DNA from: a virus
Taxonomy: Duplodnaviria; Caudoviricetes
DNA length: 64,000 nt
Reading direction: 5' to 3' (one strand)
IMG/VR virus record: IMGVR_UViG_3300021400_000012
Span: 63,575-127,574 of that record
Shown here: positions 20,133 to 39,694 of the stretch, in pieces
Layout: every line of letters begins with the position of its first letter
Position numbering within the stretch: position 1 is the stretch's first letter
Made by a program: the position numbers and the translations under genes
The notes under the pieces: model-generated
What the model saw: the letters and a program-made list of their open reading frames with translations, nothing else
Told to the model about the DNA's origin: nothing
Databases searched by the model: none

Positions 20133-21251
20133 ATGAAGAATTATATTGATAGTGTTAATTTTCACGAGCTTGAACCGCAGCGTTATTGGACGCCGCCTGC
20201 GTCGTGGGACGATAATCGGAAGAAAACTGAAGTGCAGAACGCAATCTTCTCTGGCGATTATATCGGCGCCCGTAAAATGGATGGCGCCTTCTACAAGTTT
20301 GTGAAAGATGAAGATGGTAATATGGAATTGCTCGGCCGCAGTAAAAGCGTGAGCGGTGATTATCTCAATAAACTTGATTGGGTTCCACAACTGCATTCTT
20401 TCTTCGATAATCTCCCAAATGGGACTTGTTTAATTGGAGAAATTTATTTTCCGAATAACGAAGGTTCAAATCATGTGACCACCATTATGGGTTGTTTGAA
20501 AGAAAGAGCAGTCGCGCGCCAAGAAAGTGGAGAAAGACTTCACTATTATATTTTTGATGTACTTGCTTTCGCGCAGAACTCCTGGTATAAGTCTAATATA
20601 GAAGATAGAGTTGCACTTCTTAATGAGATCAGTAATGGTTGGAGTTCCGAATTTGTCGAGTTCGCCAAGTATTATGAAGGTGCCGAGCTTTGGGAGCAGC
20701 TTCAGTCTATTCTTGCAGCCGGCGGCGAAGGCATCGTCATCACGAAGAAAGGAACTTGTTACCAGCCAGGTAAGCGTCCGGCGCGGCAGACTTTTAAAGT
20801 TAAAAAAGAACTTCAAGAAACTCTTGATGTTGTAATTCTTGGCGCGAATCCGCCAACTCGTCTTTACACTGGTAAAGAAATTATGAGCTGGCGGTTGTGG
20901 GAAGACCTTCGAACTGGAGAAAAGTTAGAAGGCGCGCTCTATAAGCGATATAGTGATGGGGATCCAATTGAACCGGTCACAAAGACCTACTGGAATGGAT
21001 GGGCCGGATCTTTCATTATTGGATTATATGACTTAAATAATAAAAAATATATTCCTATTGGTTCATTGAGCGGTTTAACCGAAGAAATGTTACAAAATTG
21101 GAAATCTTATGAAGGAAAAGTAGCTGAAATCTCAGGTATGCAATTAATGCGAGATAATAATGGTAAATTTACAGGCATTCGACATCCACGGTTAGTTAAT
21201 CTTCGTTTAGATAAAAATCCCAATGAGTGTTTAATGGAACAAGTTCAATGA
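20133..21251 (+). CDS. ATP-dependent DNA ligase
   Basis: KMDG (motif I), LIGEIY, YIFDV, EGIVI, KVKK, IRHPR. Confidence 0.85.
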   Translation: MKNYIDSVNFHELEPQRYWTPPASWDDNRKKTEVQNAIFSGDYIGARKMDGAFYKFVKDEDGNMELLGRSKSVSGDYLNKLDWVPQLHSFFDNLPNGTCLIGEIYFPNNEGSNHVTTIMGCLKERAVARQESGERLHYYIFDVLAFAQNSWYKSNIEDRVALLNEISNGWSSEFVEFAKYYEGAELWEQLQSILAAGGEGIVITKKGTCYQPGKRPARQTFKVKKELQETLDVVILGANPPTRLYTGKEIMSWRLWEDLRTGEKLEGALYKRYSDGDPIEPVTKTYWNGWAGSFIIGLYDLNNKKYIPIGSLSGLTEEMLQNWKSYEGKVAEISGMQLMRDNNGKFTGIRHPRLVNLRLDKNPNECLMEQVQ

Positions 21252-21375
21252 TAGTATATATTTATAATTTTCCTAAAGCTTTAAATATAAATCATAGTCT
21301 TCCTTCATATGCGCTTAATCATTCACATTATGGCGGAGGATATTATTTTTATTTTTATAATGAAGAGAAATGTTA

Positions 21376-21768
21376 ATGATGAGTTCATTTGAAAAAATTG
21401 TACGCTCGATTCTTGTTGAATCGGGCGTACAGTTTGAATAGGAAAAACAATTTAAAGATCTCTATAACGGTTTATATCGCTTTGATTTTTATCTTCCAGT
21501 TTAGAATTGTGTACTTGAAATTCAGGGGATGCAGCACTACATATTTACTAAACAATTTTATGCAAATCGGTCAGATTTTTTAAAAGCTCAAGAACGTGAC
21601 CGCCGCAAATTAGCTTATTGTCTAGCCAATAACATTAAAGCTTATTGTATACCATATTGGGAAATGGGGAATATAAATACAATTGATGATATTTTTTAGG
21701 ATAAATTTCTTGCACGGTCAAAATTCCATAATGATGAAGTCTGGAGACTACAAAAGTCTAAACAGTAA
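21376..21768 (+). CDS. PD-(D/E)xK (Vsr/DUF559-like) endonuclease
   Basis: FE(TAG)EKQF...RFDFYLP...EIQGMQHY...ERDRRK..YC..NNI...IPYW. Confidence 0.75.
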
Positions 21769-21816
21769 GGTTTATTTTTCTACTTAATAGTGAGAAAAAT
21801 GTAGGAGGCCATTCAA

Positions 21817-22158
21817 ATGGACTGGACCGCAATCATCGTCGCAGCGATTCCTGTCATACCGTTGCTCCTCACTACGATTTTAACCGCAAGAGGTACGAAT
21901 AAGAAGGTGCAAAAAGTCTCAGATGCACAAAAGTTGATAACCGATGCGCAACTGGATTTAATGCGCAATGAAATTGTAAAGATTTATTATAAACGTCAAG
22001 ATGTCAAATAGTTATATCAATATGAACGAGAATCTCTTGATAAGCTTTATGAAGGTTATCATTCTGGTGGAGGCAATACTTTTATTGATGATATTTACGC
22101 AGAAATGCGTCATTGGAAAGTTGTACCGGCCGGACAAAAAATTGAAGATGATGAGTGA
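21817..22158 (+). CDS. Holin-like membrane protein
   Basis: N-terminal TM helix; LMRNEI...LYEGYHSGGGN; extended through a TAG to TGA. Confidence 0.65.
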
Positions 22159-22160
22159 TA

Positions 22161-22194
22161 AAAAGAGACCTCGCATTAAGCGAGGTCTTTTTTT
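22161..22194. terminator. Bidirectional terminator
   Basis: AGACCTCGC-attaa-GCGAGGTCT followed by T-tract. Confidence 0.75.
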
Positions 22195-22712
22195 AAAAAA
22201 TCAACTACATTATTTTCTAAATCTTTTAAGCTGCCGTTGTTATCAATTATAATATCATAATCATAATTATAAACTTCATTATCAGCATGATTTGATGTTT
22301 TTGCTTCTTCATCAACATCTTTACGATCAATTAAAATCGATTTCGCGCCAAGTCCATCACAAAGCTTTTTTATTTCGGCGGGTTCTCTACAATCAATAAA
22401 TACAACCCCACAAGATGGATCGACATCATACTAATCAAGGTGAAAATAAAACAAGTCTAAATCATTGCAAATTTTATTATAGGGAACGTCGCCCCATTCG
22501 GTTAAGAGATCTTTTAGATCGGATAAAAATTTACGATTTTTTGGCGTTTTAGTACCATCCCAGCCGCACTCTTTTGCAATATCTTTTACAAAATCAATAG
22601 TAGAGCAAATTAATGTAGGTCGATATACCTAATGTAATTTTGCTGCGGCGATTTCTTCAAAAGTAGTTTTTCCACATCCAGGAGAACCATTTACAATAAA
22701 AATATTTTTCAT
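22176..22712 (-). CDS. Deoxynucleoside monophosphate kinase-like P-loop protein
   Basis: IFIVNGSPGCGKTT, GWDGTK..KNRKFL, FIDCREP.EI, NHAD, IIDNNGSL; 2 TAGs. Confidence 0.8.
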
Positions 22713-23665
22713 TACTTTTTACGAATTACCCATTCAAGCCATTTGTTAAAACTAAGTTCAGGAAAAATGGCTTCATTTGAAAAGAAAATAATACCTTTAC
22801 AACTACGTTCTACCTCTTGCCAAAAATCTAACTAATCCATAGCCTCATGTAACCAATGTGTATCTAGCTTTTGAAGATAGTATTGAGCTTTTTCTGTAGG
22901 TAAATCATAATGCATTGCAATCATACTTTCGTTATATAAATAAACCAAAGTACGCGCCGCGATAGAGGGGTTCATATGTAATGTTTGTTTATAAATATCG
23001 CGTAGACCATCGACTTGAGATAGGATATATTGTTCCCAGCCTTTTTTGAAAAAGCCTTTTAATCCATCTTTGCGCGTTAATGAATTTGGATTATCCATCA
23101 TTAAAACCGTGACTTCATGTAGTTGCCCGCGTCGTTGAGTCGAATTCCATGCTACGACGTTGAAATATGAATCTTCATTCAGTCGTAAATTAGGATGAAA
23201 ACGAATATTGTTGTCTTTCAGGTAACTCGCGCGATAAATTTTTCCAGCACACCATGTAATTGCAGTAGTATTGACATCCTATAAAAGATTAGTATCTTCT
23301 TGATGTCTTACAAAACTTGAACTAATAATATCAAGTTTTTCTTTTTCAATGCCGCGTGCTAGTGATTCAACGGCCTGCGGAAGAACTAAATCATCAGAAT
23401 CACAAAGCATAAAATATTCTGACGTATTATCTGCATCCATGCCAGCCTGGCGCGCGAGCCCCGGCCCAACATTTTCAGGTAACGTAATTAAATTAATAGT
23501 TAAGCTACGTTCACGAAATTCTTCAATAATATCGGTATAATCTTCTCCATCGCAGTCATTAACAAGCGTTACAAAAAAGTCTTTGGTTGTCTAAATTAGT
23601 AATGATGTTAAAACTGCTGGGAGTGTTTTCTTTGAATGATATACTGGAATAATAATATCAACCAT
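22712..23665 (-). CDS. Glycosyltransferase family 2
   Basis: DIIIPVYH, SLLI(TAG)T, LVNDCD, NVGPGLARQAG, CDSDD. Confidence 0.85.
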
Positions 23666-24113
23666 TAAACTCCTTTGCCTCCACAGCCCTGCGATCGACA
23701 TAATTATTCCAATAGTCATCGTCATGGCCTTTTACTTTATAAAAATTAAAAATATCTGATTCAAAATATGGAATTAAACAAATCCATAATTCTTTATTAG
23801 CGACTGGTTGTTTTTTAGAATTTAACCAATCATTTTTTATCCAGTTTTTCCACCAGCCTTGAGAGTAGCAATTCATACAATATGCAGAGTCGCTATAAAC
23901 ATCAAAATGTTGGTACATAGGATACATCTTCGATGCAGCGTCACAAGCATCGATTAATGCTCGAAGTTCACATTGGTTATTTGTAACTTCCCTATCAGAT
24001 CCCCACCCTTGAAGTACAATCTGATTATTATTGTCCACAATAACCCAGGCCCAGCCGCCTTTCGCGCCTTTGTAGCCATTATTTGAAGTTGCACCATCAG
24101 TATAAATTTTCAT
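23658..24113 (-). CDS. rnhA: Ribonuclease HI
   Basis: IYTDGA, TNNQCEL, SDSAY, PVANKELW, KVKGH, N..VD. Confidence 0.9.
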   Translation of the reverse strand: MKIYTDGATSNNGYKGAKGGWAWVIVDNNNQIVLQGWGSDREVTNNQCELRALIDACDAASKMYPMYQHFDVYSDSAYCMNCYSQGWWKNWIKNDWLNSKKQPVANKELWICLIPYFESDIFNFYKVKGHDDDYWNNYVDRRAVEAKEFNG

Positions 24114-24114
24114 A

Positions 24115-24504
24115 TTATTTGTTCTTTCTTGGATAATAATTTTGTGCAATGTGATAAAATGGATCAACCACTTTTTCTAAATTGGCATCTTCAATATCGC
24201 TAATGAAACGATCAAGCTTCATACCGCCATTATGTTTAACACGTTTTATGCTGCGGTTATGAAATCGAAGCCGTGTTTTCCAATAGGAAATTAAAGGCAT
24301 ATCTAAATAAGCTTCACGTTTTAAAACTTGACAAGCTAAATTAATGATATTTAACATCGCCCAATGTTTTTCATCTTCATAATGCACATCAGAAAAACGA
24401 ATGATACCATCGTTTTTAGAAATAGTATTTAGATTTAAAAATGCTACATTAACTAATTTATCAAGGAACTCAAAATATTCTTTATCAAACTTTTTCTCTT
24501 CCAT
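24115..24504 (-). CDS. Hypothetical protein
   Basis: Intact ORF, SD AAGGAG, upstream promoter. Confidence 0.6.
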   Translation of the reverse strand: MEEKKFDKEYFEFLDKLVNVAFLNLNTISKNDGIIRFSDVHYEDEKHWAMLNIINLACQVLKREAYLDMPLISYWKTRLRFHNRSIKRVKHNGGMKLDRFISDIEDANLEKVVDPFYHIAQNYYPRKNK

Positions 24505-24717
24505 AATAATACTCCTTTTATTACTTATATTATACTAAATAATTCACAATTTTTCAAATTTTCTAATGCTTTTTAAAACTTGAAAATTTTCATATTTTAT
24601 GTTATTTTCGCGTGCGTCTGCGCGTATTTAATAAGGAAGGAATCTTTTTGAAACCCAAAATTTGAATTTTGACTAAAATTTTTATATAATATAATCAGAA
24701 ATATTAAAGGAGTAGTT

Positions 24718-25005
24718 ATGAAAGTTATCACTCAAAAAGAAATTAAAGAAATCAATCAGCTTTATGTAAAATTTAAAACATATGCTGCTGTAGCTCGTGC
24801 TACTGGATTTAGTCCTGCTACAGTAAAAAAATATGTTATCAAAGATTGGGCTGATTTAGATGAATCTACTTTTATCAGATTTGACCGTCCGTTACCAGAT
24901 TTTGATAGTACTCTTTTTCGCTGTGATGACTGGGGTCCATTATGTACATTAACTTCAGATGAAGAACGAGAGATTCGTGAGCTGTGGAAGGAATTAGAAG
25001 TATGA
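24718..25005 (+). CDS. HTH-containing protein
   Basis: TYAAVARATGFSPATVKKYV helix-turn-helix. Confidence 0.65.
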   Translation: MKVITQKEIKEINQLYVKFKTYAAVARATGFSPATVKKYVIKDWADLDESTFIRFDRPLPDFDSTLFRCDDWGPLCTLTSDEEREIRELWKELEV

Positions 25006-25358
25006 AAAAGTATTTTTATTTAGAAGAATCTCCGGTTTACAAAAATAAATACATCATTCGTATGAACCATGAATTGTTTCTTTTTCCAAATGGTATTTCT
25101 GGTTCTTACAATGTATTTGTCGCGCGCCTTCTAAACCTTAGTTATGCAGATTATTTACGTTATTCTCGTGATCGACTTGGCGCTGAATTAATTGGTAAAA
25201 ATACGAGATATATAATTCCTTATTATGAAAATAATGCTGAGACTAGAGCGCTTATTAAATTATTAAATACTCGAATGGAATATATTATGCATGAGCATGA
25301 ATTTCCTTTTAGTTACATGGAGGATAAAGATGGCAATGTTTTACGGACGCCATTATAA
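25002..25358 (+). CDS. Hypothetical protein
   Basis: ATG 25002 overlaps previous gene. Confidence 0.6.
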   Translation: MKKYFYLEESPVYKNKYIIRMNHELFLFPNGISGSYNVFVARLLNLSYADYLRYSRDRLGAELIGKNTRYIIPYYENNAETRALIKLLNTRMEYIMHEHEFPFSYMEDKDGNVLRTPL

Positions 25359-25364
25359 TGTTGA

Positions 25365-26225
25365 ATGATAATTACACGTGAACTATTAATAAAACTATAG
25401 GCTTGCGAACATGGACTGAAATTGTTAGAGAAGTATCCTAATGGTGCTACTTTAATTGAACTAGCCGACGATCCCGATGTGGAATTAGACGATTTTTATT
25501 TTGCGCGTCATTATTTTCATTTTAATGATGAGGAAATGAAAATTTATAATAAGCATTGTCAAATCTTTGGTTGCGGCGACCACATATTGCGCAGCTCAAA
25601 AATTACAGATAGTAATTGGGTTTATAATAGTATTAATATAAATAAATCAAATTATATAAATTAGTGTGAACAAGTAATTGAAAGTTCTGAAATTGTTAAT
25701 TCAGTTAATGTTCAATATAGTAAAAATATAATAAATAGTAAAAATATAAATTATTCTGAAAATGTAGCTGATTCTGATGATATTTCAAATTCTAATAATA
25801 TAATTAATAGTAGTCATATAAATTGGTCTAGCGTAATTAATTCCAGCTTTTTACTTGAAGATTGTCATTTTATGTATAAAAGTAATAATACAAAAGACAG
25901 TTATTTTTGTGGTTTTGTAGAAAATTCTAATCATTGTTTATTTTGTAATAATCTTTCAAATGCTGAGTATCAAATTTTTAATAAATAGGTTACACAAACG
26001 GAATTTGAAAAAGTAAAAGAAATTTTATTATTACAGCTCCAAGCGGAAAATATAGATTTATTAAATATAAATATTGAAAAACATTTAAATCCAAGATTTT
26101 CATACGATTTAAGATTTGATAGAATGTTTGAACAGCTATCTGAACAATTTTATGGTTGGGTAGGATCATTACCTTAGTTTGACGAATAGATATTTCTTTT
26201 ATTGTTTTTTACTACATTAAAATAA
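25365..26225 (+). CDS. Beta-helix (hexad Ser/Asn repeat) protein
   Basis: SxxVxNS repeats; CLFCNNLSNAEYQIFNK(TAG)VT; 5 TAGs. Confidence 0.7.
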
Positions 26226-26293
26226 TTTGATTTTTTTATAAAATTATAATATTATATAAATATAAACTAAAAAGTTTACTTAGGAGTACAATA

Positions 26294-26593
26294 GTGATTA
26301 TTGGTACAGAAAAATCTTTTGAAGCTTGGAAAGTCAAGCCGATTGTGATCAACAAGTGGGCAGATTTATATAATGATACTTGCATCAGGCTGCGGCGTGA
26401 GAAACTCACGTTTAAATAGATAACCCCAACAGAAATCTGTTGGCTTGCTTACGCAAGATATTTAGACACTTATGTCGCGCCTGATGATGTAGTATTTGAT
26501 GCAGGAACTAATGAGCTATTGGCAACTATTGCAAATAAATGGTTCGGCGATGATAGTATCCTGTTTAAAGGGCGCCCGCTATGTGCATAGTAA
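26294..26593 (+). CDS. Hypothetical protein directly upstream of suppressor tRNA
   Basis: SD AGGAG, GTG start, 2 TAGs, ends TAG-TAA. Confidence 0.55.
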
Positions 26594-26598
26594 ATAAT

Positions 26599-26669
26599 TG
26601 GGGTATCGTTAAATGGCATGACAGGAGGCTCTAACCCTCCCTTTGTGGGTTCGAATCCTACTACCCCAG
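26599..26669 (+). tRNA. Amber suppressor tRNA (anticodon CUA), Gln-type body
   Basis: TGGGGTA/TACCCCA acceptor, G73; GGAGG-CT CTA AC-CCTCC; GTGGG-TTCGAAT-CCTAC. Confidence 0.92.
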
Positions 26670-26681
26670 TATGAGGTATCA

Positions 26682-27665
26682 ATGGAACAATTTGGATATA
26701 TTTATAAAATTATAAATGATATAAATGATAAAGTGTATGTTGGCGAAACAACTAGATCTTTAGAAGATCGTTTTTCAGAGCATTGTTTTGAAAAAAGATC
26801 AACGTCTAGAATTCATAAGGCCATTCAAGAGCTAGGCTGGCAGCATTTTAAAATTGTTGAAATTGAAAAGGTTCCGTTATCTCAAATTTTTGAACGAGAA
26901 ACTTATTGGGTTCAATATTATAATTCATATAAAAATGGTTATAATGGTACCCCTGATGGACAGAGTATAAAATTTCATGAACATACTCGATGGTATAATA
27001 GTGTTCATATAATTGAGCCTAATTTATTTTTTGATAGCGCTGAAGCTATGGCGCGCGAATTACACAATTTAACTTCTTGGTCTTTTCGTTTTTGCAACGA
27101 TAAAATAAAACAAAGCTTAAATGAAAATAAAGATTTTCTTGGTTATCATTTAGAGTATGTTAAAATATATGAAAATGAAATATCAAGTATAGAAGATCGA
27201 GAAAATTGGATTAAAATTTTAAATATACAATTTGCAGGAAAACGAATTTATTGCGAAAAATTAAATAAAGAATTTAATACTGTAGGTGAAGCAGCAAAGT
27301 ATTTATTAGAGAATGGATATTATATTGGGCAGTCAAAAATTCCAATTCAATCTATAGTAACTACAATTAGTCGGCAGCTCAAAGAGCCAGAGAGTGTTTT
27401 GTCTAGCATCTCTGGGAATTTAGTGTTTGAGCAGCTTCCAGGCTCAACAAAAAATAAAGGTTCTCAAACGCCATGGCAAAGTCAAAAAGTTCATTGTAAT
27501 GAATTAAATATGGATTTTGATTCTCAAACTGAGGCCGCGCGTTATATGATTGAAAAAGGATATTGGAGCGGTATTAAATTAAAAACTGGTAAATTAAGAC
27601 TTAGCGATATTATAAATGGTATTTTTCCAAATTATAAAGGCTATAGTTTTAAAAGAATAGAATGA
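26682..27665 (+). mobile_element. Free-standing GIY-YIG homing endonuclease with NUMOD1-like repeats
   Basis: GYIYKIIN...VYVGET...RF.EH...RE.YW...GYN; repeated F.S..EAARY DNA-binding units; no TAG. Confidence 0.8.
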
Positions 27666-27856
27666 ACGCAGTTGTATGTAATAATTATTAGTGTAAATAT
27701 AATGGTGGAAAATTTTGTAACAAACCTATACTTATTATGCTAAATGGTGGTTGTAGTGAGTTAATTGATAAAAATGGAAATTTAAAAGATCCATCGGTTT
27801 GGACAAAACAAATGATGTCTACGGAAGAATGGAAGAATTTATATGAAGGAACGTAA
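27662..27856 (+). CDS. Small Cys-rich protein
   Basis: VCNNY(TAG)CKYNGGKFC; ATGA overlap. Confidence 0.5.
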
Positions 27857-28028
27857 GTTTAGGAAAATCGTTGATATTATTACAGTTATTATTGCGGCGA
27901 TTTTATCGGGTATGTTAGCATATGGGCTTATTGTAGATGGAAGAAAATCTATTTTAGAAGCACCATTTTATTTAATTTTTACTGGTATTTTATTTATTCT
28001 CGCTTATAAGAAGCGAGATGACATTTAA
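27843..28028 (+). CDS. Small two-TM membrane protein
   Basis: Two hydrophobic segments. Confidence 0.55.
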   Translation: MKERKFRKIVDIITVIIAAILSGMLAYGLIVDGRKSILEAPFYLIFTGILFILAYKKRDDI

Positions 28029-28031
28029 TGT

Positions 28032-28121
28032 GGAGCCATAATCCTAATTGGTAAGGAGCGTGTCTTGAAAACACGTAGTAGTCGTTCGCGCGGCGTTTCA
28101 GTTCGAGTCTGAATGGCTCCG
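28032..28121 (+). tRNA. tRNA-Ser(UGA)
   Basis: Cloverleaf, loop CT TGA AA, long variable arm. Confidence 0.9.
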
Positions 28122-28126
28122 CTTGT

Positions 28127-28197
28127 GGCAACGTAGTCAAGTGGAAAGACAATCGGTTGCAACCCGACGACCGTAGGTTCGAATCCTACCGTTGTCT
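28127..28197 (+). tRNA. tRNA-Cys(GCA)
   Basis: Loop TT GCA AC, U73. Confidence 0.88.
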
Positions 28198-28200
28198 TCT

Positions 28201-28273
28201 GGCTGGATGGTCTACGCGGTCGGGGCGGTGGACTGAAAATCCATTCACGTTGGTTCGACTCCAACTCCAGCCA
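28201..28273 (+). tRNA. tRNA-Phe(GAA)
   Basis: Loop CT GAA AA. Confidence 0.88.
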
Positions 28274-28276
28274 TTT

Positions 28277-28366
28277 GGAAAGGTACTCAAGTTTGGCTGA
28301 AGAGGCGCCCCTGCTAAGGGTGTAGGCCGTTTACACGGTGCAAGGGTTCAAATCCCTTCCTTTCCG
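28277..28366 (+). tRNA. tRNA-Ser(GCU)
   Basis: Loop CT GCT AA, long variable arm. Confidence 0.9.
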
Positions 28367-28369
28367 TCT

Positions 28370-28441
28370 GAGGACTTGGTGTAATTGGGAGCATAGCGGT
28401 CTCCAAAACCGTTGGTTTAGGTTCAAGTCCTAAAGTTCTTG
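28370..28441 (+). tRNA. tRNA-Trp(CCA)
   Basis: Loop CT CCA AA. Confidence 0.88.
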
Positions 28442-28458
28442 TTAGGAGAAATGAAATA

Positions 28459-28734
28459 ATGGGAGAAAATGATCTGCATAAAGTTGAAGCTTGTACTTCA
28501 ACTTCGTCAACTTATACAATTCCAAATTCTACTATTGGCGATCTTAACTATTCTCAATATTGTCTTTATAGATTGCCTTGTGGAATTTGCACAAGAACAA
28601 ATAGTATTTGCCCATTAAGTGGTAATTGTATAACTACGCCTTCGTGGGGAACTATTGCTTAGACCACTGGAAGTACTACAGTTCCAGCTAATCAAATAGT
28701 GAAAGGAGAGACAACAGCACATTTTATGTGCTAA
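28459..28734 (+). CDS. Small Cys-rich protein
   Basis: CLYRLPCGICTRTNSICP; extends through a TAG to TAA. Confidence 0.55.
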
Positions 28735-28742
28735 TTAAACTT

Positions 28743-29288
28743 ATGATTAAATCATTATACCCGCAATTTCAGCGATGGGCCGAAAAAGGAGCTGTTTGGA
28801 TTATTAGCGATCCGCATCTTAATGATAAAGATTGTAAACTAATAGACCCATATTGGCCTTCTCCTGAAGAATATATTTCAGCTCTTAAAACTGATATTGG
28901 AAAGAATGATACTTTAATTTGTTTAGGTGATGTCGGCGAACAAGAATACCTCAAATCTTTAAAGTGTTATAAAGTTTTAATTACTGGAAATCATGACGCT
29001 GGCGCCACAACTTATAAAGATACATTTGATGAAGTCTATGATGGGCCGCTCTTCATTGCAGATCGTATTTTACTTTCACATGAACCAATTAATGGATTAG
29101 AGGATATTTGTCTTAATATTCATGGCCACATTCACAATTCATTTGATGATGACCGCGGGCATCTGAATCTCGCAGCCAATGTGTGTGATTATTATCCCTT
29201 CAATTTAGGGCGCGCAATTAAAAACGGATTGCTTTCTGAATATAAAAATTATCATAAGTTAATTCTTGAAAAAAGAGAAAAATTATAA
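28743..29288 (+). CDS. Calcineurin-like metallophosphoesterase
   Basis: SDPH, LGDVG, GNHD, SHEP, HGHIH. Confidence 0.88.
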   Translation: MIKSLYPQFQRWAEKGAVWIISDPHLNDKDCKLIDPYWPSPEEYISALKTDIGKNDTLICLGDVGEQEYLKSLKCYKVLITGNHDAGATTYKDTFDEVYDGPLFIADRILLSHEPINGLEDICLNIHGHIHNSFDDDRGHLNLAANVCDYYPFNLGRAIKNGLLSEYKNYHKLILEKREKL

Positions 29289-29346
29289 TATAATAGATTT
29301 ATCGAAAGTAAGAAAAACAAATTTACTTCGATTTGAAAAGTTAATA

Positions 29347-29510
29347 ACTTGGCTGTCGATGACGTCGGATAAACAACTCAAAGGTAGAACTGGCAAACCA
29401 AAGTAGACGAATTGCCTAATAGCAGAGCGAGTATAGGGAGTCATGACCCTTCTAAAGTCCCCGAATAAAAAGTAGACTGCGGCGGGTAGGTACGAGAGTT
29501 GTAGCCAAGT
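29347..29510 (+). ncRNA. Unassigned structured RNA
   Basis: ACTTGGCT/AGCCAAGT closing stem, ACAACTC/GAGTTGT, AGGG-agtcatga-CCCT hairpin; no ORF. Confidence 0.5.
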
Positions 29511-29793
29511 AAAAATGGAAAATGTAAATCGGTTTCTCTTCTCCTAAGGCCATGGAGTTTCATTGCCGCGGTGGATGCAATCACCATCGAGAAAATAAGA
29601 GATTGTCCCTACGGTTATCGGGGTTATGGGGAACTCGCAAACCAAAGTGAGCGCTACTCACTAGGGGGTACTACCGATGCTACTGAAACGGTGAGTCGAC
29701 GCCGGTCGGGATCAAATACTAGCACCCGTATCAGGTGCCCCCTCGGCTATTTGTCCTAATATAATTTTTTAGGTTTTTGAGCCGAGGTTTTTT

Positions 29794-29877
29794 GCTCTGA
29801 TGGCGGAATTGGTATACGCTACGGACTTAAAATCCGTCGCCCGCAAGGGATTGAGGGTTCGAATCCCTCTCGGAGCA
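29794..29877 (+). tRNA. tRNA-Leu(UAA)
   Basis: Loop CT TAA AA, variable arm. Confidence 0.9.
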
Positions 29878-29881
29878 TTAT

Positions 29882-29952
29882 GTGCCTATGGCGTAATGGT
29901 AGCGTAACAGCCTTCCAAGCTGTGGGTGCGAGTTCAATCCTCGTTAGGCACT
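29882..29952 (+). tRNA. tRNA-Gly(UCC)
   Basis: Loop CT TCC AA. Confidence 0.9.
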
Positions 29953-29959
29953 TAGATAT

Positions 29960-30032
29960 TGCTGGGTAGCTCAATGGCTAAAGTAATGTCTTCATACGAC
30001 AGAGATTGTGGGTTCGAATCCCACTCCAGCAA
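29960..30032 (+). tRNA. tRNA-Met/Ile2(CAU)
   Basis: Loop TT CAT AC; TGCTGGG/TCCAGCA acceptor. Confidence 0.8.
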
Positions 30033-30093
30033 TTTGAAATTTTCTAAAATATATGTTATAATATTTATAGAAAATGGAAAGGAAAGTTTCAAA

Positions 30094-30546
30094 ATGGATA
30101 AGATATATTTAGCTGGTTCTTGTGGCTCGGAATCGCGTACAATTATGAAAAGTATTGCTAATCAGCTTCGAGAGATGGGTGCGGAAGTCTATTGTCCTTT
30201 TGAACTTAAAATCCCCAATGCTTGGGATATGTGTCAGGAAGAGTGGGCGCGCAAAGTATTTGATAAAGATATTGCAGCCATTCGCGATTGTGATATTTTT
30301 GTTATGATAACGCCGGGCCGCGCAAGTACTGCTGGCACAAATTTTGAACAAGGGTTTGCTTATGCACTAGGTAAACGAATCATTGTGATTCAGTATACTG
30401 AAAGTAATACCAGTCTTATGACCTATTGCGGTGCAACTGCTTTTGCCAATGTTGATGAAAATGATATGATTTATCATTTTAAAGACTGTCTTGTTAAAGC
30501 AATGAAAAACTCTTTAAACAATGTTTGTGAAACAATCTTAACCTAA
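30094..30546 (+). CDS. Nucleoside 2-deoxyribosyltransferase-like protein
   Basis: KIYLAGS, VYCP, DIAAIRDCD, AGTNFEQGFAYALGK. Confidence 0.85.
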   Translation: MDKIYLAGSCGSESRTIMKSIANQLREMGAEVYCPFELKIPNAWDMCQEEWARKVFDKDIAAIRDCDIFVMITPGRASTAGTNFEQGFAYALGKRIIVIQYTESNTSLMTYCGATAFANVDENDMIYHFKDCLVKAMKNSLNNVCETILT

Positions 30547-30609
30547 GCTTCGACTCCGAGGGCAAATCGGGTAGGTGAAAGCGGTGTCAGCCTTAAGTGT
30601 GCCGCATAT

Positions 30610-30685
30610 TGGGGTGTAGTTCAGTTTGGCTAGAACGCTTGATTTGGGATCAAGAGGCTCGCAGGTTCAAATCCTGTCACTCCAA
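30610..30685 (+). tRNA. tRNA-Pro(UGG)
   Basis: Loop TT TGG GA. Confidence 0.9.
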
Positions 30686-30812
30686 TTGGATTGGTTTACC
30701 TTACAAACCCGTGTTGTGTATTGTGATGTGGAAGCAATACTCCGGTCGCCTGATATCGTTATGGCCCGACACTCGTGCGCGTAATTGACTGGTTAAAGCC
30801 TGGCGCACATTC

Positions 30813-30884
30813 GCCTCTATAGCTCAATGGTAGAGCATCCGGCTGTTAACCGGAGGGTTGTAGGTTCGAGCCCTTCTGGAGGCG
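30813..30884 (+). tRNA. tRNA-Asn(GUU)
   Basis: Loop CT GTT AA. Confidence 0.9.
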
Positions 30885-30888
30885 TTTT

Positions 30889-30961
30889 CACTCGTTAGAC
30901 TAGCAGGCAAGGTTAAGACCCTTTCAAGGTCTTGGGCCGGGTTCGAATCCCGGACGAGTGA
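30889..30961 (+). tRNA. tRNA-Glu(UUC)
   Basis: Loop CT TTC AA. Confidence 0.85.
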
Positions 30962-30962
30962 T

Positions 30963-31117
30963 AAAATTAAATAATCCAGCCAGAGTGTGCCTGGCCATCT
31001 ACTGAGCAGGTTAGATAGTGCGCATATACTAATCTAGTAGATGATACAAATAAGACCCGATTGCAATGAATCAGCATAATAAGAATGGGCGCTGCACGAA
31101 ATGGATTGTTTAATTTT
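30963..31117 (+). ncRNA. Unassigned structured RNA
   Basis: 16-bp closing stem AAAATTAAATAATCCA/TGGATTGTTTAATTTT enclosing GCCAG/CTGGC and CATCTACT/AGTAGATG hairpins. Confidence 0.55.
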
Positions 31118-31121
31118 ATTT

Positions 31122-31191
31122 GGGGATGATTTCAGAAAAAGTGTAGAAGTAGCGCTGCTACAAAAAATAGGTGCAACTCCTATCGTCTCCA
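31122..31191 (+). ncRNA. Minimal Ala-type tRNA-like RNA (tmRNA TLD-like)
   Basis: GGGGATG/CGTCTCC-A acceptor with G3:U70; T-arm ATAGG-TGCAACT-CCTAT; no D-stem or normal anticodon arm. Confidence 0.6.
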
Positions 31192-31195
31192 TTTT

Positions 31196-31269
31196 ACTCC
31201 ATTGGCGCAATTGGCAGACGCGTCTGACTTAGGATCAGAATTCTGTGGGTTCGAATCCCATGTGGAGTA
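31196..31269 (+). tRNA. tRNA-Leu(UAG), short variable loop
   Basis: Loop CT TAG GA; variable region only ATTCT. Confidence 0.85.
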
Positions 31270-31273
31270 TTTT

Positions 31274-31347
31274 GGCTTGGTAGTTCAGCTGGTCAGAACG
31301 CCGCCCTGTCACGGCGGAGGTCATGGGTTCGATCCCCATTCAAGTCG
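31274..31347 (+). tRNA. tRNA-Asp(GUC)
   Basis: Loop CT GTC AC. Confidence 0.9.
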
Positions 31348-31368
31348 CTTGTAGAAAGGAGATAGATA

Positions 31369-31659
31369 ATGAGTAGGTCTTATAAAAAATCCCCTGTCTA
31401 TACCGATGGTTCTCCTGGAACCACCAAAGAAAAGAAAAAGGTAGCTAATCGAAAAGTTCGACGTGCTGAAGATATTCCTAATGGCGGAGCTTATAAAAAG
31501 GTTCATGAATCGTGGGATATTCACGATTATGTGAATCGCTGGACGTGGGAAGAAGCTAAAGCATTTTGGGAAAGTGGTGAGAACGAATATCTCACTAAGC
31601 ATTATCCCACAGAAAAAGATTTCTACCGCTATTGGCTGAAATGTTGTAAGTCAAAATGA
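31369..31659 (+). CDS. Basic hypothetical phage protein
   Basis: SD AAGGAG; MSRSYKKSP...KKVANRKVRR. Confidence 0.7.
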   Translation: MSRSYKKSPVYTDGSPGTTKEKKKVANRKVRRAEDIPNGGAYKKVHESWDIHDYVNRWTWEEAKAFWESGENEYLTKHYPTEKDFYRYWLKCCKSK

Positions 31660-31992
31660 TTGGTCTACATTACAGACCCGATCAAGTGTTTTATATTTAG
31701 CGCGAATTAAGTCGTTTGTTGATTATACATATGTGATGTTCAGCCGATTTTTCCATCACCCAGTACTGAATGTTATTGATGACCAAATATCGAAGCAAGT
31801 TTCTTACCAGCCCTCTTCGAGGCGCATCAGTCAGTGGACTTTATGAAGCTGGGGAACTCCAGGAAAATTCCCTGCCAGCAAGGGTTGGGCCTTGCATATG
31901 GGCAATGGTAGCCCAGGAAGGTGCGGCGCGGTTCGAGTCCGCAAGTTGAAGCCGTTCGAATCGGCCAGCGCATGGTGCAAAACCTTCCATTT

Positions 31993-32065
31993 GCTTCTCT
32001 GGCGCAATCGGTAGCGCAACTGACCTGTAATCAGTAGGTTGAGGGTTCGAGTCCCTCGGGGAGCT
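31993..32065 (+). tRNA. tRNA-Thr(UGU)
   Basis: Loop CC TGT AA (C33). Confidence 0.88.
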
Positions 32066-32067
32066 TT

Positions 32068-32333
32068 GGCCGGTAGACAAGCATTAAAAGTCGAAAAGAC
32101 AATGTTAATCTCGGGAAAGGAAAGCAGTGGAGAGACACCACAGCGGGCGGCGGTACGCAGAGAGCGATGGTAAAAAATACCATAGAGCGCGGCGAACATT
32201 ATATTGAGAACGTAACTTAACAAGGTGAGAGACCTAGTACTAAACGATAATGTAAAAATCCGCATAAGCTACCCCAGTTACAATCGTTGAATCCGGAAGA
32301 GATGGCGCGTGATTGAAACTGCACGCCTGGCCA
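32068..32333 (+). ncRNA. Unassigned ~265-nt structured RNA
   Basis: GGCCGG/CTGGCC-A ends; GCGTG/CACGC hairpin; T-loop-like GTGG-agagaca-CCAC and AGGT-gagag-ACCT. Confidence 0.5.
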
Positions 32334-32359
32334 TGAATTAATATTGAATGAGGAAAATT

Positions 32360-32554
32360 ATGACTTGGGAAGAGTTCAAAAATCTAAAGTTTACATATGA
32401 AACGACCAACTATAAAAAGACGTAGATTGAATGTCCAAAATGCGGCGCGCCACTATTTATGCGGACAGACGTAGTTCTTACTACTTATCCAGTGCAATAT
32501 CAATACGTATGTAAAGAATGCGGCTGGGTAGGGCATAGTTTTAATAAGGCATAA
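32360..32554 (+). CDS. Zn-ribbon protein
   Basis: CPKCG...CKECGW; one TAG. Confidence 0.7.
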
Positions 32555-32561
32555 TTTATGC

Positions 32562-32633
32562 GCAGGTATAGTATAATGGTTATTATGAGTCCTCGCCAAG
32601 GATTAGATGTGGGTTCAATTCCCACTACTTGCT
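32562..32633 (+). tRNA. tRNA-Gly(GCC)
   Basis: Loop TC GCC AA (C33). Confidence 0.8.
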
Positions 32634-32793
32634 TAGCAGTTAAGTGCGACTGCAATAAAACGCACAATGAGATGCGAAACTCTCGTGAATCCCCTCTTGC
32701 ACAAAGGGAGAATCGAAAAAAGCCGTTAATGGTAACTGCGAAACGTTAAATACAGTGCTTGCTGATACTTGTGCAAGAAGTAATCAGCAACTT

Positions 32794-32878
32794 GGGGATG
32801 TGGCGAAATCGGCAGACGCAGCGGACTCAAAATCCGCTGGTGCAAAACACCGTACGGGTTCAAGTCCCGTCATCCCCA
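32794..32878 (+). tRNA. tRNA-Leu(CAA)
   Basis: Loop CT CAA AA, variable arm. Confidence 0.9.
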
Positions 32879-32992
32879 TCATCATATTCATTCGTAGTTT
32901 AAATAAGGTGCCAAAAAATAAATCCTTAGGTAAAACACCTTCTGCGCAAAGGAAATGCAAGTGCGAGGCTTGCCGAATGAGCTATCATATAT

Positions 32993-33065
32993 GGGGCTAT
33001 AGCTCAGTTGGGAGAGCGCACGGTTTGCACCCGTGAGGTCGAGGGTTCGGGTCCCTCTAGCTCCA
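32993..33065 (+). tRNA. tRNA-Ala(UGC)
   Basis: Loop TT TGC AC, G3:U70. Confidence 0.9.
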
Positions 33066-33189
33066 CTAAGACCGCAGGGATGGCCAAGCACCAAGGTCGC
33101 TTCTTTTCATCTATGTGATGGTTTGCTGCGGTATATAAATAAATATGGGCCTGCGGAAGCGTGGTAGTGCTTTCATGACTTCCGACTAA

Positions 33190-33266
33190 TGGGGTGTCGC
33201 CAAGAGGCTTAAGGCCGCGGACTTTGACTCCGTGATATGTCGCTGGTTCGAATCCAGCCACTCCAG
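33190..33266 (+). tRNA. tRNA-Gln(UUG)
   Basis: Loop CT TTG AC, U1:A72. Confidence 0.9.
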
Positions 33267-33281
33267 CTATAGGAGGATTAA

Positions 33282-34208
33282 ATGACAAAACGACTTATTG
33301 CAATAGTAATATTGGTTCTTTTTGTTTTAGGAACAATTTTACTTAGTTGTAATTCTGGATAGCCATAGCGTAATTTAATTCCAGAAGAAATAGATTCAAC
33401 TACTGATGTTCCCGCAACAGAAGAACTAACTTATGTTGAGGTAGAAACAAGTACGGAAGTTGAAACTGAAGAAACTATTTATACTGAAATTGAAGAAACT
33501 ACTACAATCAAAATTGAGACTAAAACGGAAGAACCTACAACGGTACCTGAAGTTATAAAAACACAAATGTGGACTGCGACTGCAGTATATTTTAGAACAG
33601 GACCTGATACACATTGTAATTATTATCAAACACTTACAAAAGGAACTGAAATTATTGCACTTGATTTTGATTGGAATAATGAATGGACGCAAGTTTATCA
33701 TAACGATAATGTCGGATATATTTATACTGAATATCTAGATGAAAATTTTGTAAATAAGTACGATTATTACTATATTAATTATGGTAATCAGATTGAAAAA
33801 CTTGATCCTGCATTACAAGAATATGCGCAAGATATTCTAGACGAGTGGGGTTGCCGCGACTTTTTTAAATTTTTCTTATGCCAAGCATATCAAGAATCAC
33901 ATTATAATATGAATAGTGTGGGTAAGATGCATGGCGGCTACTATGACTATGGAATTATGCAAATTTGGGAAGGTCACGTTTATAATAAAAATTCTTTTTG
34001 TTATAACATAATACAAGAACACCCTAACTATAAAATAAATCCATACGACAATATTTATGTCGGTTTGTGGATGTGGCATGAATGGTATAAAGTTACGGGT
34101 GATTATATTACAGCTTTAGGTTGTTATCTGAGTGGAACCACTACACCTTCTCAAACTTATATTAATTCTGTATTAGGACATATGAATTATTTATCTTTAG
34201 TACAATAA
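33282..34208 (+). CDS. Lipoprotein with SH3b and lytic transglycosylase (SLT-like) domains
   Basis: Signal peptide with LLSC lipobox, then two TAGs; T/E-rich linker; VYFRTGP...GYI SH3; QES...YGIMQI. Confidence 0.75.
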
Positions 34209-34306
34209 AATTTAAGGTACATAAGAGTGCTGACCTGGTTATTGCACTTAATACTCGACCAATCGCGCGAAAACAAATCTTATGTATTTTAATTTTTTGA
34301 AATTAA

Positions 34307-34380
34307 TGGGGCGTAGCTCAGTTGGTGAGAGCGTCGGCCTTATAAGCCGCAGGTCATGGGTTCGAATCCCATCGCCCCTA
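34307..34380 (+). tRNA. tRNA-Ile(UAU)
   Basis: Loop CT TAT AA; U1:U72 mismatch. Confidence 0.8.
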
Positions 34381-34489
34381 TTAAAATTTGATTTTTTTAT
34401 AAAAATCATATATAATATATACGTAATAAAAATAAAGGAGTACTTATCATGAGGCGAAAACGCAAGTATCATAAACAAATTGAATATTT

Positions 34490-34561
34490 CCGTCAGTAGC
34501 CAAGTGGTATGGCAGCGGGCTTTTAATCCGTTCATCGCAGGTTCGAATCCTGTCTGGCGGA
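34490..34561 (+). tRNA. tRNA-Lys(UUU)
   Basis: Loop CT TTT AA. Confidence 0.85.
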
Positions 34562-34564
34562 CAT

Positions 34565-34636
34565 GCCTGATTCGTCCAATGGCAGGATAGCAGACTCTTA
34601 ATCTGTAAGCTCTCGGTTCAAGTCCGAGATCAGGCA
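34565..34636 (+). tRNA. tRNA-Lys(CUU)
   Basis: Loop CT CTT AA. Confidence 0.85.
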
Positions 34637-34641
34637 TTTGA

Positions 34642-34684
34642 ACTCCAGTAGCTCAGTGGACAGAACAACGGTCTTCTAAACCGT
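34642..34684 (+). pseudogene. Truncated tRNA-Arg(UCU), 5' half only
   Basis: Acceptor 5' strand, D arm and ACGGT-CT TCT AA-ACCGT present; no T arm or 3' acceptor strand. Confidence 0.7.
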
Positions 34685-34716
34685 TTTCCTACTTATAAAT
34701 TAAAGGAGTAAAAACA

Positions 34717-34866
34717 ATGACAATTTAGGATAAATTAGTTATTTTATATCTGCGGCGCAATAAACTTGAAGCTAATGGAAAAAATTTCAAAAGTCCTGGT
34801 GTTCTGCGGAAGGTAAATCGGCAGATTCGTAATTTAAATGATAACGTAGGTGCTTCAAACCATTGA
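34717..34866 (+). CDS. Small basic protein
   Basis: SD AAGGAG; MTI(TAG)DKL...KSPGVLRKVNRQIRNL. Confidence 0.55.
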
Positions 34867-38554: not shown

Positions 38555-38594
38555 GTAAGATGAAAGAGAAAGTACTTTGAAAAATATATAATTA

Positions 38595-39130
38595 CAGTAA
38601 CTCAGTGAAGACCGAAAGCGACTTTCGGGCTGAGATGGGGCGGCAAGGCTACCGTAGGACACGAAGCAAGGATACTTGCGGATATTGCGGGTGTATGTAA
38701 TGTGAATTACATACCCAAGCGGAGAGAACTCCCACTAGTCACATTGCCCCAGTACTGAAGTTAATTGCCGATAAAAGTAGGATACGAGTGGGCGGTGTAA
38801 TAGAAAGCAAGTTGAATAGACTTGCCGAATCCAAGTTAGGCTCGGACGGGTGGTGCCGAAAGCAATCCTTGGAAACTTACCAAACAAACCGTTGCGCAGT
38901 TGAAATAATCACTTGTATGCAACTCCAAGTAGCGGAAATCTGCGGTGCAAATATTAGCAAGTATGGCGTGCGTGTGAACGTTAAAATTCCTCTGAACGTC
39001 CCGTGAAAGGTAGAAGTAATCAATCTTCTTATGGATTAAAGGTGAAGAACCTGTGTCCGTGGAAAACGGACGGGGTAAGAAGCTATGGGGTAGCTCCCCA
39101 TGTCTCAGACTTATCTCCCATATAGCCAAA
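38595..39130 (+). ncRNA. Probable ROOL large ornate RNA
   Basis: ~540 nt, non-coding, GC-richer, many stems; 5' CTGAGATGGG can pair with 3' CCCATGTCTCAG; blocks GTACT..AGTAGGATACGAG, GAATCCA, GCTC...AGAC..ATC resemble ROOL as recalled; adjacent to tRNAs. Confidence 0.65.
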
Positions 39131-39694
39131 TATATCGACATTAAATGGCAGCAACGCGAAGGCGTACAGTAATTATATATTTTTGAGAGTACATTCTCTC
39201 ATGGAAGTAAAATAAAGTGCGACGGTGCTTTAGGGTATAAGTTGGCTGATTAGTAGTTGTACGCAGCATGAATTTGATTTCCCACGCTGGACGTGGCGGA
39301 ATTAATCTTGTTCGTAATAAGGCCCGAAGCAAGAGGTGGACTATTATTCCACAACTCTTCCTTATATCCACTTTTATAATGTATCAAGATCAACATTGGC
39401 ATGCTGGCAATAAAAAAGCCAATGAGATGTTGTGCCTAGCACGGGGATGGGAGAGCGATGCTCCCAATAAGTGCCATCCATATGAGCGCAAAAAATACTG
39501 GCGATAAAAAAGGGACGCCATAAGAAAACAACAGAAGATACTAAAAAAGACGATAGGTCTATAAACTTCTGGCTGCGACCAGATCAACCGCACGGAGTAA
39601 CTCCAACCGCGTCCATCCTGGCTCGGTATATAAACGCATCGGGAGAGCAAGGAAACTGTATTTAGGAAAACCATTAGGGAGTACGTAATCCCTA

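Follow-up and report, generated by a model that had tools for sequence, protein, structure and literature searches.

Within the tRNA array of this phage lies a 70-nt element that we identify, with somewhat better than even confidence, as a functional anticodon-less alanine tRNA-like gene, a divergent, A/U-rich variant of a widespread class of phage and bacterial mini-RNAs. The window, the whole stretch of 64,000 nucleotides that was analysed, makes up the right-hand half of a virus record of 127,574 bp that has direct terminal repeats. ARAGORN called 23 tRNAs on its + strand between 26.6 and 39.9 kb, including a suppressor with a CUA anticodon. Reading TAG as sense raises the summed length of open reading frames of at least 150 amino acids from 20,184 to 34,827 (+73%), a gain that, like the suppressor tRNA, is consistent with a phage that is probably TAG-recoded. 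The element and the features around it are as follows.

26598-26670: suppressor tRNA(CUA), called by ARAGORN
30443-30470 (+): nearest upstream promoter-like site, TTGCCA-16-TATGAT, TG-extended
30963-31121 (+): conserved spacer from tRNA-Glu to the element, about 158-159 nt, ends forming an 18-nt inverted repeat
31122-31191 (+): anticodon-less alanine-type tRNA-like element, 70 nt, discriminator A at 31191
31122-31128 (+): 5' acceptor strand GGGGAUG, pairing with CGUCUCC at 31184-31190
31129-31141 (+): unpaired A-rich "D-region" linker AUUUCAGAAAAAG, without a D-stem
31142-31162 (+): central hairpin that can pair in either of two registers, UGUAG/CUACA enclosing a further 3-bp stem, or GUAGC-GCU-GCUAC
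31167-31183 (+): T-arm AUAGG-UGCAACU-CCUAU, contiguous with the 3' acceptor strand
31184-31191 (+): 3' acceptor strand CGUCUCC and discriminator A73, followed by UUUU, CCA not encoded
38577-39184: ROOL RNA, called by Rfam

The first-pass annotation described an acceptor with a G3:U70 pair, a T-arm, an unpaired D-region and one short hairpin at 31122-31191, and all of these are seen in the sequence. The acceptor is a perfect 7-bp helix (G1-C72, G2-C71, G3·U70 and G4-C69, with U6·G67 among the other pairs) followed by A73, and the T-arm consists of a 5-bp stem and the 7-nt loop UGCAACU, which has G at position 55, where a pseudouridylated U normally sits. The segments have the lengths 7/13/21/4/17/7/1, with CAG at positions 12-14. 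No stable D-stem forms in constrained or free folds of the element, and its hairpin loop is of 3 nt instead of the 7 nt of an anticodon loop. The two registers of the hairpin, of which GUAGC-GCU-GCUAC occupies 31149-31161, are almost isoenergetic; a third pairing, a 3-bp stem with a 7-nt loop (anticodon GCU), was rejected in view of C33, G37 and two G-C pairs closing the loop. The tRNA-like fold has an energy of -17.4 to -17.8 kcal/mol, versus -18.7 kcal/mol for the minimum free energy (MFE) structure, which has a z-score of -2.4 relative to shuffled sequences.

The alanine identity features of the element, G3·U70 and A73, were read from the sequence by the definition in PMC3968760, where Hou and Schimmel are cited for the charging by alanyl-tRNA synthetase (AlaRS) of RNAs that contain them. 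The tRNA-Ala(UGC) of the phage (32993-33065) is identical to the element in the first four acceptor pairs and the discriminator (GGGG/CUCC and A), and similar in its position in the operon and its CCA-less 3' end, but the element lacks the D-stem, G18G19, 7-nt anticodon loop and anticodon of that tRNA. It does not form a canonical cloverleaf, having no D-stem, no G18G19 and no 5-bp anticodon stem with a 7-nt loop.

The ARAGORN and Rfam tmRNA scans that the first-pass annotation had proposed did not call the element. ARAGORN, run on the window, called it neither tRNA nor tmRNA and found no tag peptide, and it was recognized neither as tRNA (RF00005) nor as tmRNA (RF00023) by Rfam at the gathering threshold or by cmscan at E<=10. 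Its RF00023 score is 12 bits with the whole middle of the model deleted (gathering score, 47), and three ordinary tRNAs of the array that also match RF00023 score higher (19-25 bits). The motifs of the tmRNA tRNA-like domain (TLD), namely UUCGAC after the acceptor, GGAC before the T-arm and a UUC T-loop, are absent from the element. As had been claimed, it has no mRNA-like domain, resume codon or tag reading frame, and at 70 nt it is too short for one. No SmpB gene was found in the phage genome. The element resembles the TLD of bacterial tmRNA (RF00023) in G3·U70, A73, a stem-less D-region, a T-arm and the lack of an anticodon (PMC3968760), but differs from bacterial tmRNA in having no mRNA-like domain, pseudoknots or tag reading frame, no D-loop and T-loop motifs, G in place of pseudouridylated U55, and a score far below the gathering score. 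Derivation as an attP remnant (a 3' fragment of a tmRNA or tRNA gene) was rejected because the 5' acceptor strand is also present and because this is a large terminal-repeat phage with its own tRNA array.

The element is placed in the operon as a tRNA would be, in agreement with the earlier description: 159 nt separate it from tRNA-Glu upstream, and 3 nt from tRNA-Leu(UAG) at 31195 downstream. Its 3' flank, TTTT without an encoded CCA, matches that of the neighboring tRNAs; CCA is encoded by none of the 20 canonical array tRNAs that were checked, all of which have UUC T-loops. On the + strand between the promoter-like site at 30443-30470 and the element, no other promoter-like or terminator-like site was found, and co-transcription with tRNA-Pro, tRNA-Asn, tRNA-Glu, tRNA-Leu and tRNA-Asp is therefore likely. 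The hairpin of the element does not qualify as a terminator, being followed by an A-run and not a U-run, and no terminator was called on the + strand. A 43-aa open reading frame at 31101-31232 was rejected as a gene: it lacks a Shine-Dalgarno sequence and extends into tRNA-Leu, and its ATG persists in relatives that do not have the element. The spacer at 30963-31121 is about 90% conserved in three related contigs (L012, L023 and L208). Since it occurs with or without the element in relatives, it is context and not part of the element; its inverted-repeat ends suggest that it may be a structured RNA freed by the flanking tRNA processing sites.

Related contigs were gathered through homologues of a neighboring 96-aa open reading frame, which are many; according to sample labels, they apparently derive from rumen metagenome projects, and their tRNA arrays are very mosaic. 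The element is contained in a 74-nt cassette, the size of one tRNA module, that is present in the window and in L023, L024, L028 and L208. It is identical in L023, L024 and L028, but the identity in L023 and L028 is weaker evidence because it falls inside a longer block of 100% identity, which may reflect recombination and not selection. In L012 and L026, which lack the element, the upstream spacer joins tRNA-Leu directly, a clean 74-nt indel; absence from such very close relatives implies that the element is dispensable. The copy in L208, a JGI contig in which the downstream tRNA is a different one, Gly(UCC), differs from the window at 1 of 70 positions (G36A at 31157, in the hairpin), the sole substitution seen, versus 17 of 160 in the adjacent spacer and 1 of 75 in tRNA-Glu. 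At the spacer rate about 7.4 changes would be expected per 70 nt (Poisson P of about 0.005 for the one seen), and so, by the L208 comparison, the element has about 7-fold fewer substitutions per site than the spacer beside it. Exact and near-exact DNA searches of IMG/VR with a 43-mer and a 24-mer of the element gave no matches, no close relative was found among GenBank phages, no relatives of a neighboring 168-aa open reading frame were found in IMG/VR, and BLASTN-short and nhmmer comparisons of the element with the phage genome and about 40 related loci returned identical copies only.

These comparisons bear on the possibility that the element is a decaying tRNA gene, a functionless pseudo-tRNA left by duplication in an array of fast turnover and perhaps still excised by RNase P and RNase Z. 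Its layout can be written as that of a class I tRNA (7+2+18+13+5+17+7+1) with the anticodon loop shortened by 4 nt, the mosaic arrays hold other broken tRNA-like genes (such as a 60-nt one in L022, and those to which ARAGORN assigns 2-nt or 4-nt anticodons), the element is missing from near-identical phages, and its 5' acceptor strand GGGGATG is shared with tRNA-Leu(CAA) of the array. However, none of the 12 pairs of the acceptor and T-stem has been lost, while nothing recognizable as tRNA is seen in the D and anticodon regions, a combination that is hard to reconcile with neutral decay and that saturating drift would produce with a chance of about (6/16)^12. Moreover, the element is better conserved than the spacer beside it, the full alanine set (G1-G4/C69-C72, G3·U70 and A73) would be unexpected in a remnant of a leucine tRNA, and a large structured class of the same architecture exists. 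A decaying tRNA gene is accordingly unlikely. Although tRNA-Leu(CAA) shares with the element not only the GGGGATG strand but also GGTGCAA, in the variable arm of that tRNA, the similarity goes no further, and direct derivation from it was discarded. The cassette-like indel and the conservation relative to the spacer indicate instead that the element is the product of neither chance nor neutral decay.

A search pattern abstracted from the element (GGGG, a gap of 38-56 nt, GGTGCAA..CC, 6 nt, CTCCA) matched at least 119 viral stretches in IMG/VR. The six acceptor and T-stem pairs that the pattern leaves unconstrained are all intact in at least 99 matches (about 0.3% expected by chance), and at least 95 structured non-tRNA viral elements of 63-82 nt remain after removal of four loci set aside as tRNA-Ala. 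The 99 fully paired matches listed comprise 72 unique sequences, three of them tRNA-Ala genes called by ARAGORN and 69 non-tRNAs of 63-81 nt (set A1). When the 69 are aligned, compensatory changes are numerous at acceptor pairs 5-7 and at T-stem pairs 1-3, and an AG that the pattern does not demand stands, nearly without exception, about 4 nt downstream of the 5' acceptor strand. Because pairing was a condition for inclusion, the proportion of paired cells is in part a product of the selection; this does not apply to the enrichment or to the range of pair types. CCA is encoded after A73 in 29 of the 69 (42%).

Most members of the class are arranged as acceptor, NNN-UAG-AUUCGAC, hairpin, GGAC and T-arm, which is the signature of the tRNA-like domain of tmRNA. 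Many contain UAGAUUCGAC...GGAC, and these score 20-50 bits on the Rfam tmRNA model with its middle deleted (50.4, 48.1, 47.5, 46.6, 39.7, 34.9, 24.9 and 20.6 bits, spanning model positions 1-374 in about 70 nt); A/U-rich forms (L067, L064 and L104) fall below the E=1 level. Three of the 13 viral loci scanned at the gathering threshold (L059, L088 and L053) reach the tmRNA cut-off, and they are the only elements to do so among the viral and bacterial loci scanned with Rfam. With a second pattern, which demanded UAGAUUCGAC...GGAC and left the T-loop unconstrained, 29 of 29 unique elements were found to have UGC(A/G)A T-loops, though all belong to one clade. The better-conserved members of the class appear to be tmRNA tRNA-like domains from which the mRNA-like domain has been deleted. 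The first pattern also retrieved 49 unique non-tRNA forms from bacterial genomes and metagenome-assembled genomes of many phyla, with sub-threshold Rfam tmRNA scores of 23-40 bits, some of them in tandem, beside tRNAs or in tRNA arrays. The viral loci of the class (L052-L207, for example L059:995-1061, L088:755-821, L068:8577-8655 and L175:6553-6646) range from 63 to 94 nt, and the 94-nt sub-type has an insert with a repeated GUCAC hairpin. Genome loci L210-L329 include a 67-69-nt variant in Saccharibacteria and other CPR groups, Alphaproteobacteria and Verrucomicrobia; bacterial examples are L220:5870-5937, L265:4701-4849 (a tandem pair) and L235:731-810.

A re-scan of 96 viral copies by ARAGORN called none of them, and 87 of the 96 have no tRNA within 2 kb; a few are 2-14 nt from a tRNA or within arrays, and some (L062, L077, L081 and L153) are flush against tRNAs. 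In a single case, a class member (L055:7350-7417) is 14 nt from an ochre suppressor tRNA (anticodon UUA) called by ARAGORN. The solitary placement of most members is relevant to a further explanation, that the element is a processing handle, a minihelix that recruits RNase P and RNase Z and so sets off the spacer RNA at its 3' end and the following tRNA at its 5' end. The mascRNA of MALAT1 and the tRNA punctuation of mitochondrial transcripts are parallels for such a role, the element is invariably preceded by the conserved spacer with its paired ends, it lacks a separate promoter, and in L208 its linkage to the spacer is kept although the downstream tRNA differs. A handle is nevertheless quite improbable, because in L012 and L026 the spacer abuts tRNA-Leu, which supplies the same cleavage sites without the element, because the G3·U70/A73 set is not required for one, and because L209 and the majority of class members have no tRNA neighbor within 2 kb.

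The element shares the three-way layout of the class (a 7-bp GGGG..CUCCA acceptor, an 11-13-nt linker with (Y)AG, a hairpin, a 2-5-nt linker and a T-arm); the CAG in its linker matches the nearly invariant (Y)AG, and its UGCAA T-loop with G55 is of the UGCRA type of the class. Its acceptor, GGGGAUG/CGUCUCC, is identical to those of two tmRNA-like mini-elements, L083 and L249. In length and in the 7-bp alanine acceptor it agrees with the mini-elements L059, L088 and L053 and the A/U-rich L067, L104 and L209, and also in the (Y)AG some 4 nt downstream of the 5' acceptor strand, the one variable hairpin, the short linker and the UGCRA T-arm. The core mini-elements, however, have UAGAUUCGAC and GGAC where the element has an A-rich linker and AAAA(A), and CCA is not encoded in the element. 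A covariance model of the class (R1) scores the element at 41 bits (E 3e-7) but was rejected as a discriminator, since tRNA-Ala controls with UGCAA loops score equally (36-43 bits) and columns fixed by the search pattern dominate. For the interior (linker and hairpin), the best global alignment score in comparison with the class is 25 versus a shuffled mean of 26.3, and 76% of shuffles score as high. The element is a member of the class by architecture; a shared descent is at most conjectural, its interior having no significant similarity to any member.

A close relative is L209, a stand-alone 90-nt element in a contig with no tRNAs called. Its T-arm is that of the element, its acceptor (GGGGUAG/CUACUCC) has changed in a compensatory way, and it has UAG ahead of an A-rich linker. 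L209 apparently comes from rumen samples, as do the relatives of the window; a rumen origin of L104 is a guess from its IMG sample number. L209 and L104 suggest an A/U-rich sub-group that includes the element. The covariation sought by the first-pass annotation is present among class members, as compensatory changes, and in the acceptor of L209, but not within the element's own lineage, of which only near-identical copies exist.

L209 also counts against a chance arrangement of complementary segments in A/T-rich spacer. A bare descriptor (7-bp stem with an adjacent 5-bp, 7-nt-loop hairpin) has about 55 non-tRNA matches in 255 kb, counting both strands, so that such an arrangement arises about once per 4.6 kb of the phage genome, and the MFE z-score is just -2.4. 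The expected chance of ending flush before the next tRNA is only about 0.001 per junction, or about 0.02-0.03 over the whole array, and with the tRNA-like spacing, the cassette-like indel, the conservation relative to the spacer, the alanine identity set and a relative with a compensatory acceptor, chance is scarcely credible.

CDS-less tmRNAs are described in the accessible literature from organelles and one phage. Hudson et al. (2014) listed "Mycobacterium phage DS6A (TLD only)" (PMC4131195), and a 2025 tmRNA database paper reports CDS-less tmRNAs in mitochondria and in plastids of Mallomonadaceae (about 65 bp), with DS6A as the phage case (PMC11915505). We located the DS6A element at JN698994:28478-28560 (RF00023, 43 bits). 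Like the element of the window, it is phage-encoded, within about 70-83 nt, with a GGGG...CUCCA acceptor, G3·U70 and A73. Neither RNA has a D-stem or a tag frame; in each, one hairpin takes the place of helix 2 and of the mRNA-like domain, and the T-arm stacks on the acceptor. Unlike the element, the DS6A RNA has GGUCGAC after the acceptor and the canonical T-loop GUUCGAUUC (UUCGA, versus UGCAACU), and it lies between protein-coding genes and not in a tRNA operon. The CDS-less tmRNAs of jakobid and oomycete mitochondria and of Mallomonadaceae plastids, to which the element is likened by description, similarly retain little beyond the tRNA-like domain and no tag frame (PMC11915505), but they co-occur with a targeted SmpB and their homology to full tmRNAs is traceable. 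The numbers of viral loci above imply that the class is far commoner in phages than the accessible literature suggests.

In our reading the element belongs, as a divergent variant, to the CDS-less tmRNA or anticodon-less alanine tRNA-like kind. Its earlier interpretation as tmRNA-TLD-like is partly supported: it holds for the alanine identity, for the architecture shared with a class that has tmRNA-scored members, and for the DS6A precedent, but not for the TLD motifs or the tmRNA model score, nor for homology, since interior similarity to the class is not significant.

RNase P and RNase Z process minihelices made of an acceptor and T-arm, and CCA-less precursors receive CCA from a host enzyme. 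The element would be co-transcribed with the flanking tRNAs, its 5' end would be cut by RNase P and its 3' end by RNase Z after A73, the host enzyme would add CCA, and host AlaRS would charge the product by virtue of G3·U70 and A73. The combination of minihelix processing, CCA addition and alanine identity makes a charged, non-decoding Ala-RNA likely. Having neither anticodon nor tag frame, such an RNA could not decode; most likely it would compete with host tmRNA for SmpB, elongation factor Tu (EF-Tu) or AlaRS, and trans-translation would then be damped or diverted during infection. A molecule similar to that of DS6A is reported to be a strong inhibitor of the endogenous tmRNA of E. coli, possibly through titration of SmpB (PMC4131195, PMC11915505), and competition with tmRNA by the element of the window, by analogy, is speculative. 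The TLD of tmRNA consists of an acceptor with CCA that accepts only alanine, a T stem-loop and a stem-less D-loop, and contacts between the D-loop and T-loop are needed for SmpB (PMC3968760). The missing TLD motifs make recognition of the element by SmpB doubtful, and it might instead be a decoy for another tRNA-binding factor.

The latter possibility extends to any decoy or alternative substrate outside trans-translation, for instance of an anti-phage tRNA nuclease or a modification enzyme, or as a non-ribosomal alanine donor. It would accommodate the missing motifs, the presence of other non-canonical tRNA-like sequences nearby (31916-31989 and 32888-32981), and G55 of the T-loop, which cannot be pseudouridylated, unlike the corresponding position of the 20 canonical array tRNAs checked. 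On the other hand, no linked nuclease, transferase or defence gene is found in the examined data, the argument proceeds from an absence of evidence for the tmRNA route, and the core of the related class is clearly tmRNA-like; a role of this kind is quite unlikely. A more sweeping proposition is that many phage lineages encode alanine-accepting, anticodon-less mini-RNAs with a G55 T-loop that hijack or blunt tmRNA-SmpB rescue, the element being an A/U-rich offshoot that has lost the classical motifs for recognition by SmpB and that may, in a TAG-recoded phage, protect UAG-waiting ribosomes against tmRNA tagging; taken as a whole, this is doubtful.

If RNAs of this class are charged and meet SmpB or EF-Tu, they would represent a widespread phage RNA tool acting against, or replacing, the ribosome rescue of the host, and the proposition would, if true, bear on how recoded phages tolerate ribosome pauses at reassigned stop codons. 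For annotation, the preferred reading of the element as an anticodon-less alanine tRNA-like gene means that functional tRNA-like genes can lie, missed by standard finders, in what look like gaps of phage tRNA arrays.

Several other unusual tRNA-like sequences were observed in the window and in related arrays. Between tRNA-Leu(CAA) and tRNA-Ala of the window is a 94-nt element (32888-32981, + strand) that is called by no tRNA finder; its ends pair perfectly over 7 bp (TCATTCG/CGAATGA), and next to this stem is a T-like arm of 5 bp with the loop TGCGAGG. The stretch 31845-31989 (+ strand), which ends 3 nt before tRNA-Thr, has no anticodon arm and two hairpins of the canonical T-arm type, GCGG-TTCGAGT-CCGC and GCCG-TTCGAAT-CGGC. 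No tRNA-Tyr, tRNA-Val, tRNA-Arg or tRNA-His was called by ARAGORN in the window. Three related contigs have, between tRNA-Leu(TAG) and tRNA-Asp, an 83-nt tRNA-Tyr(GUA)-like gene (L012:308-390, L023:443-525 and L026:143-225) with a long variable region and a UGCAAUU T-loop, which is missed by ARAGORN and absent from the window. Arrays related to that of the window also contain a 60-nt tRNA with intact D- and T-arms and no anticodon arm (L022:4990-5049), a 71-nt tRNA-like gene with an 8-nt loop (CUAGAAUU) and a UGCAAAC T-loop (L014:9396-9466), and a conserved tRNA with a 6-nt anticodon loop that ARAGORN labels "???(at)" (L017:6922-6994 and L041-L047).
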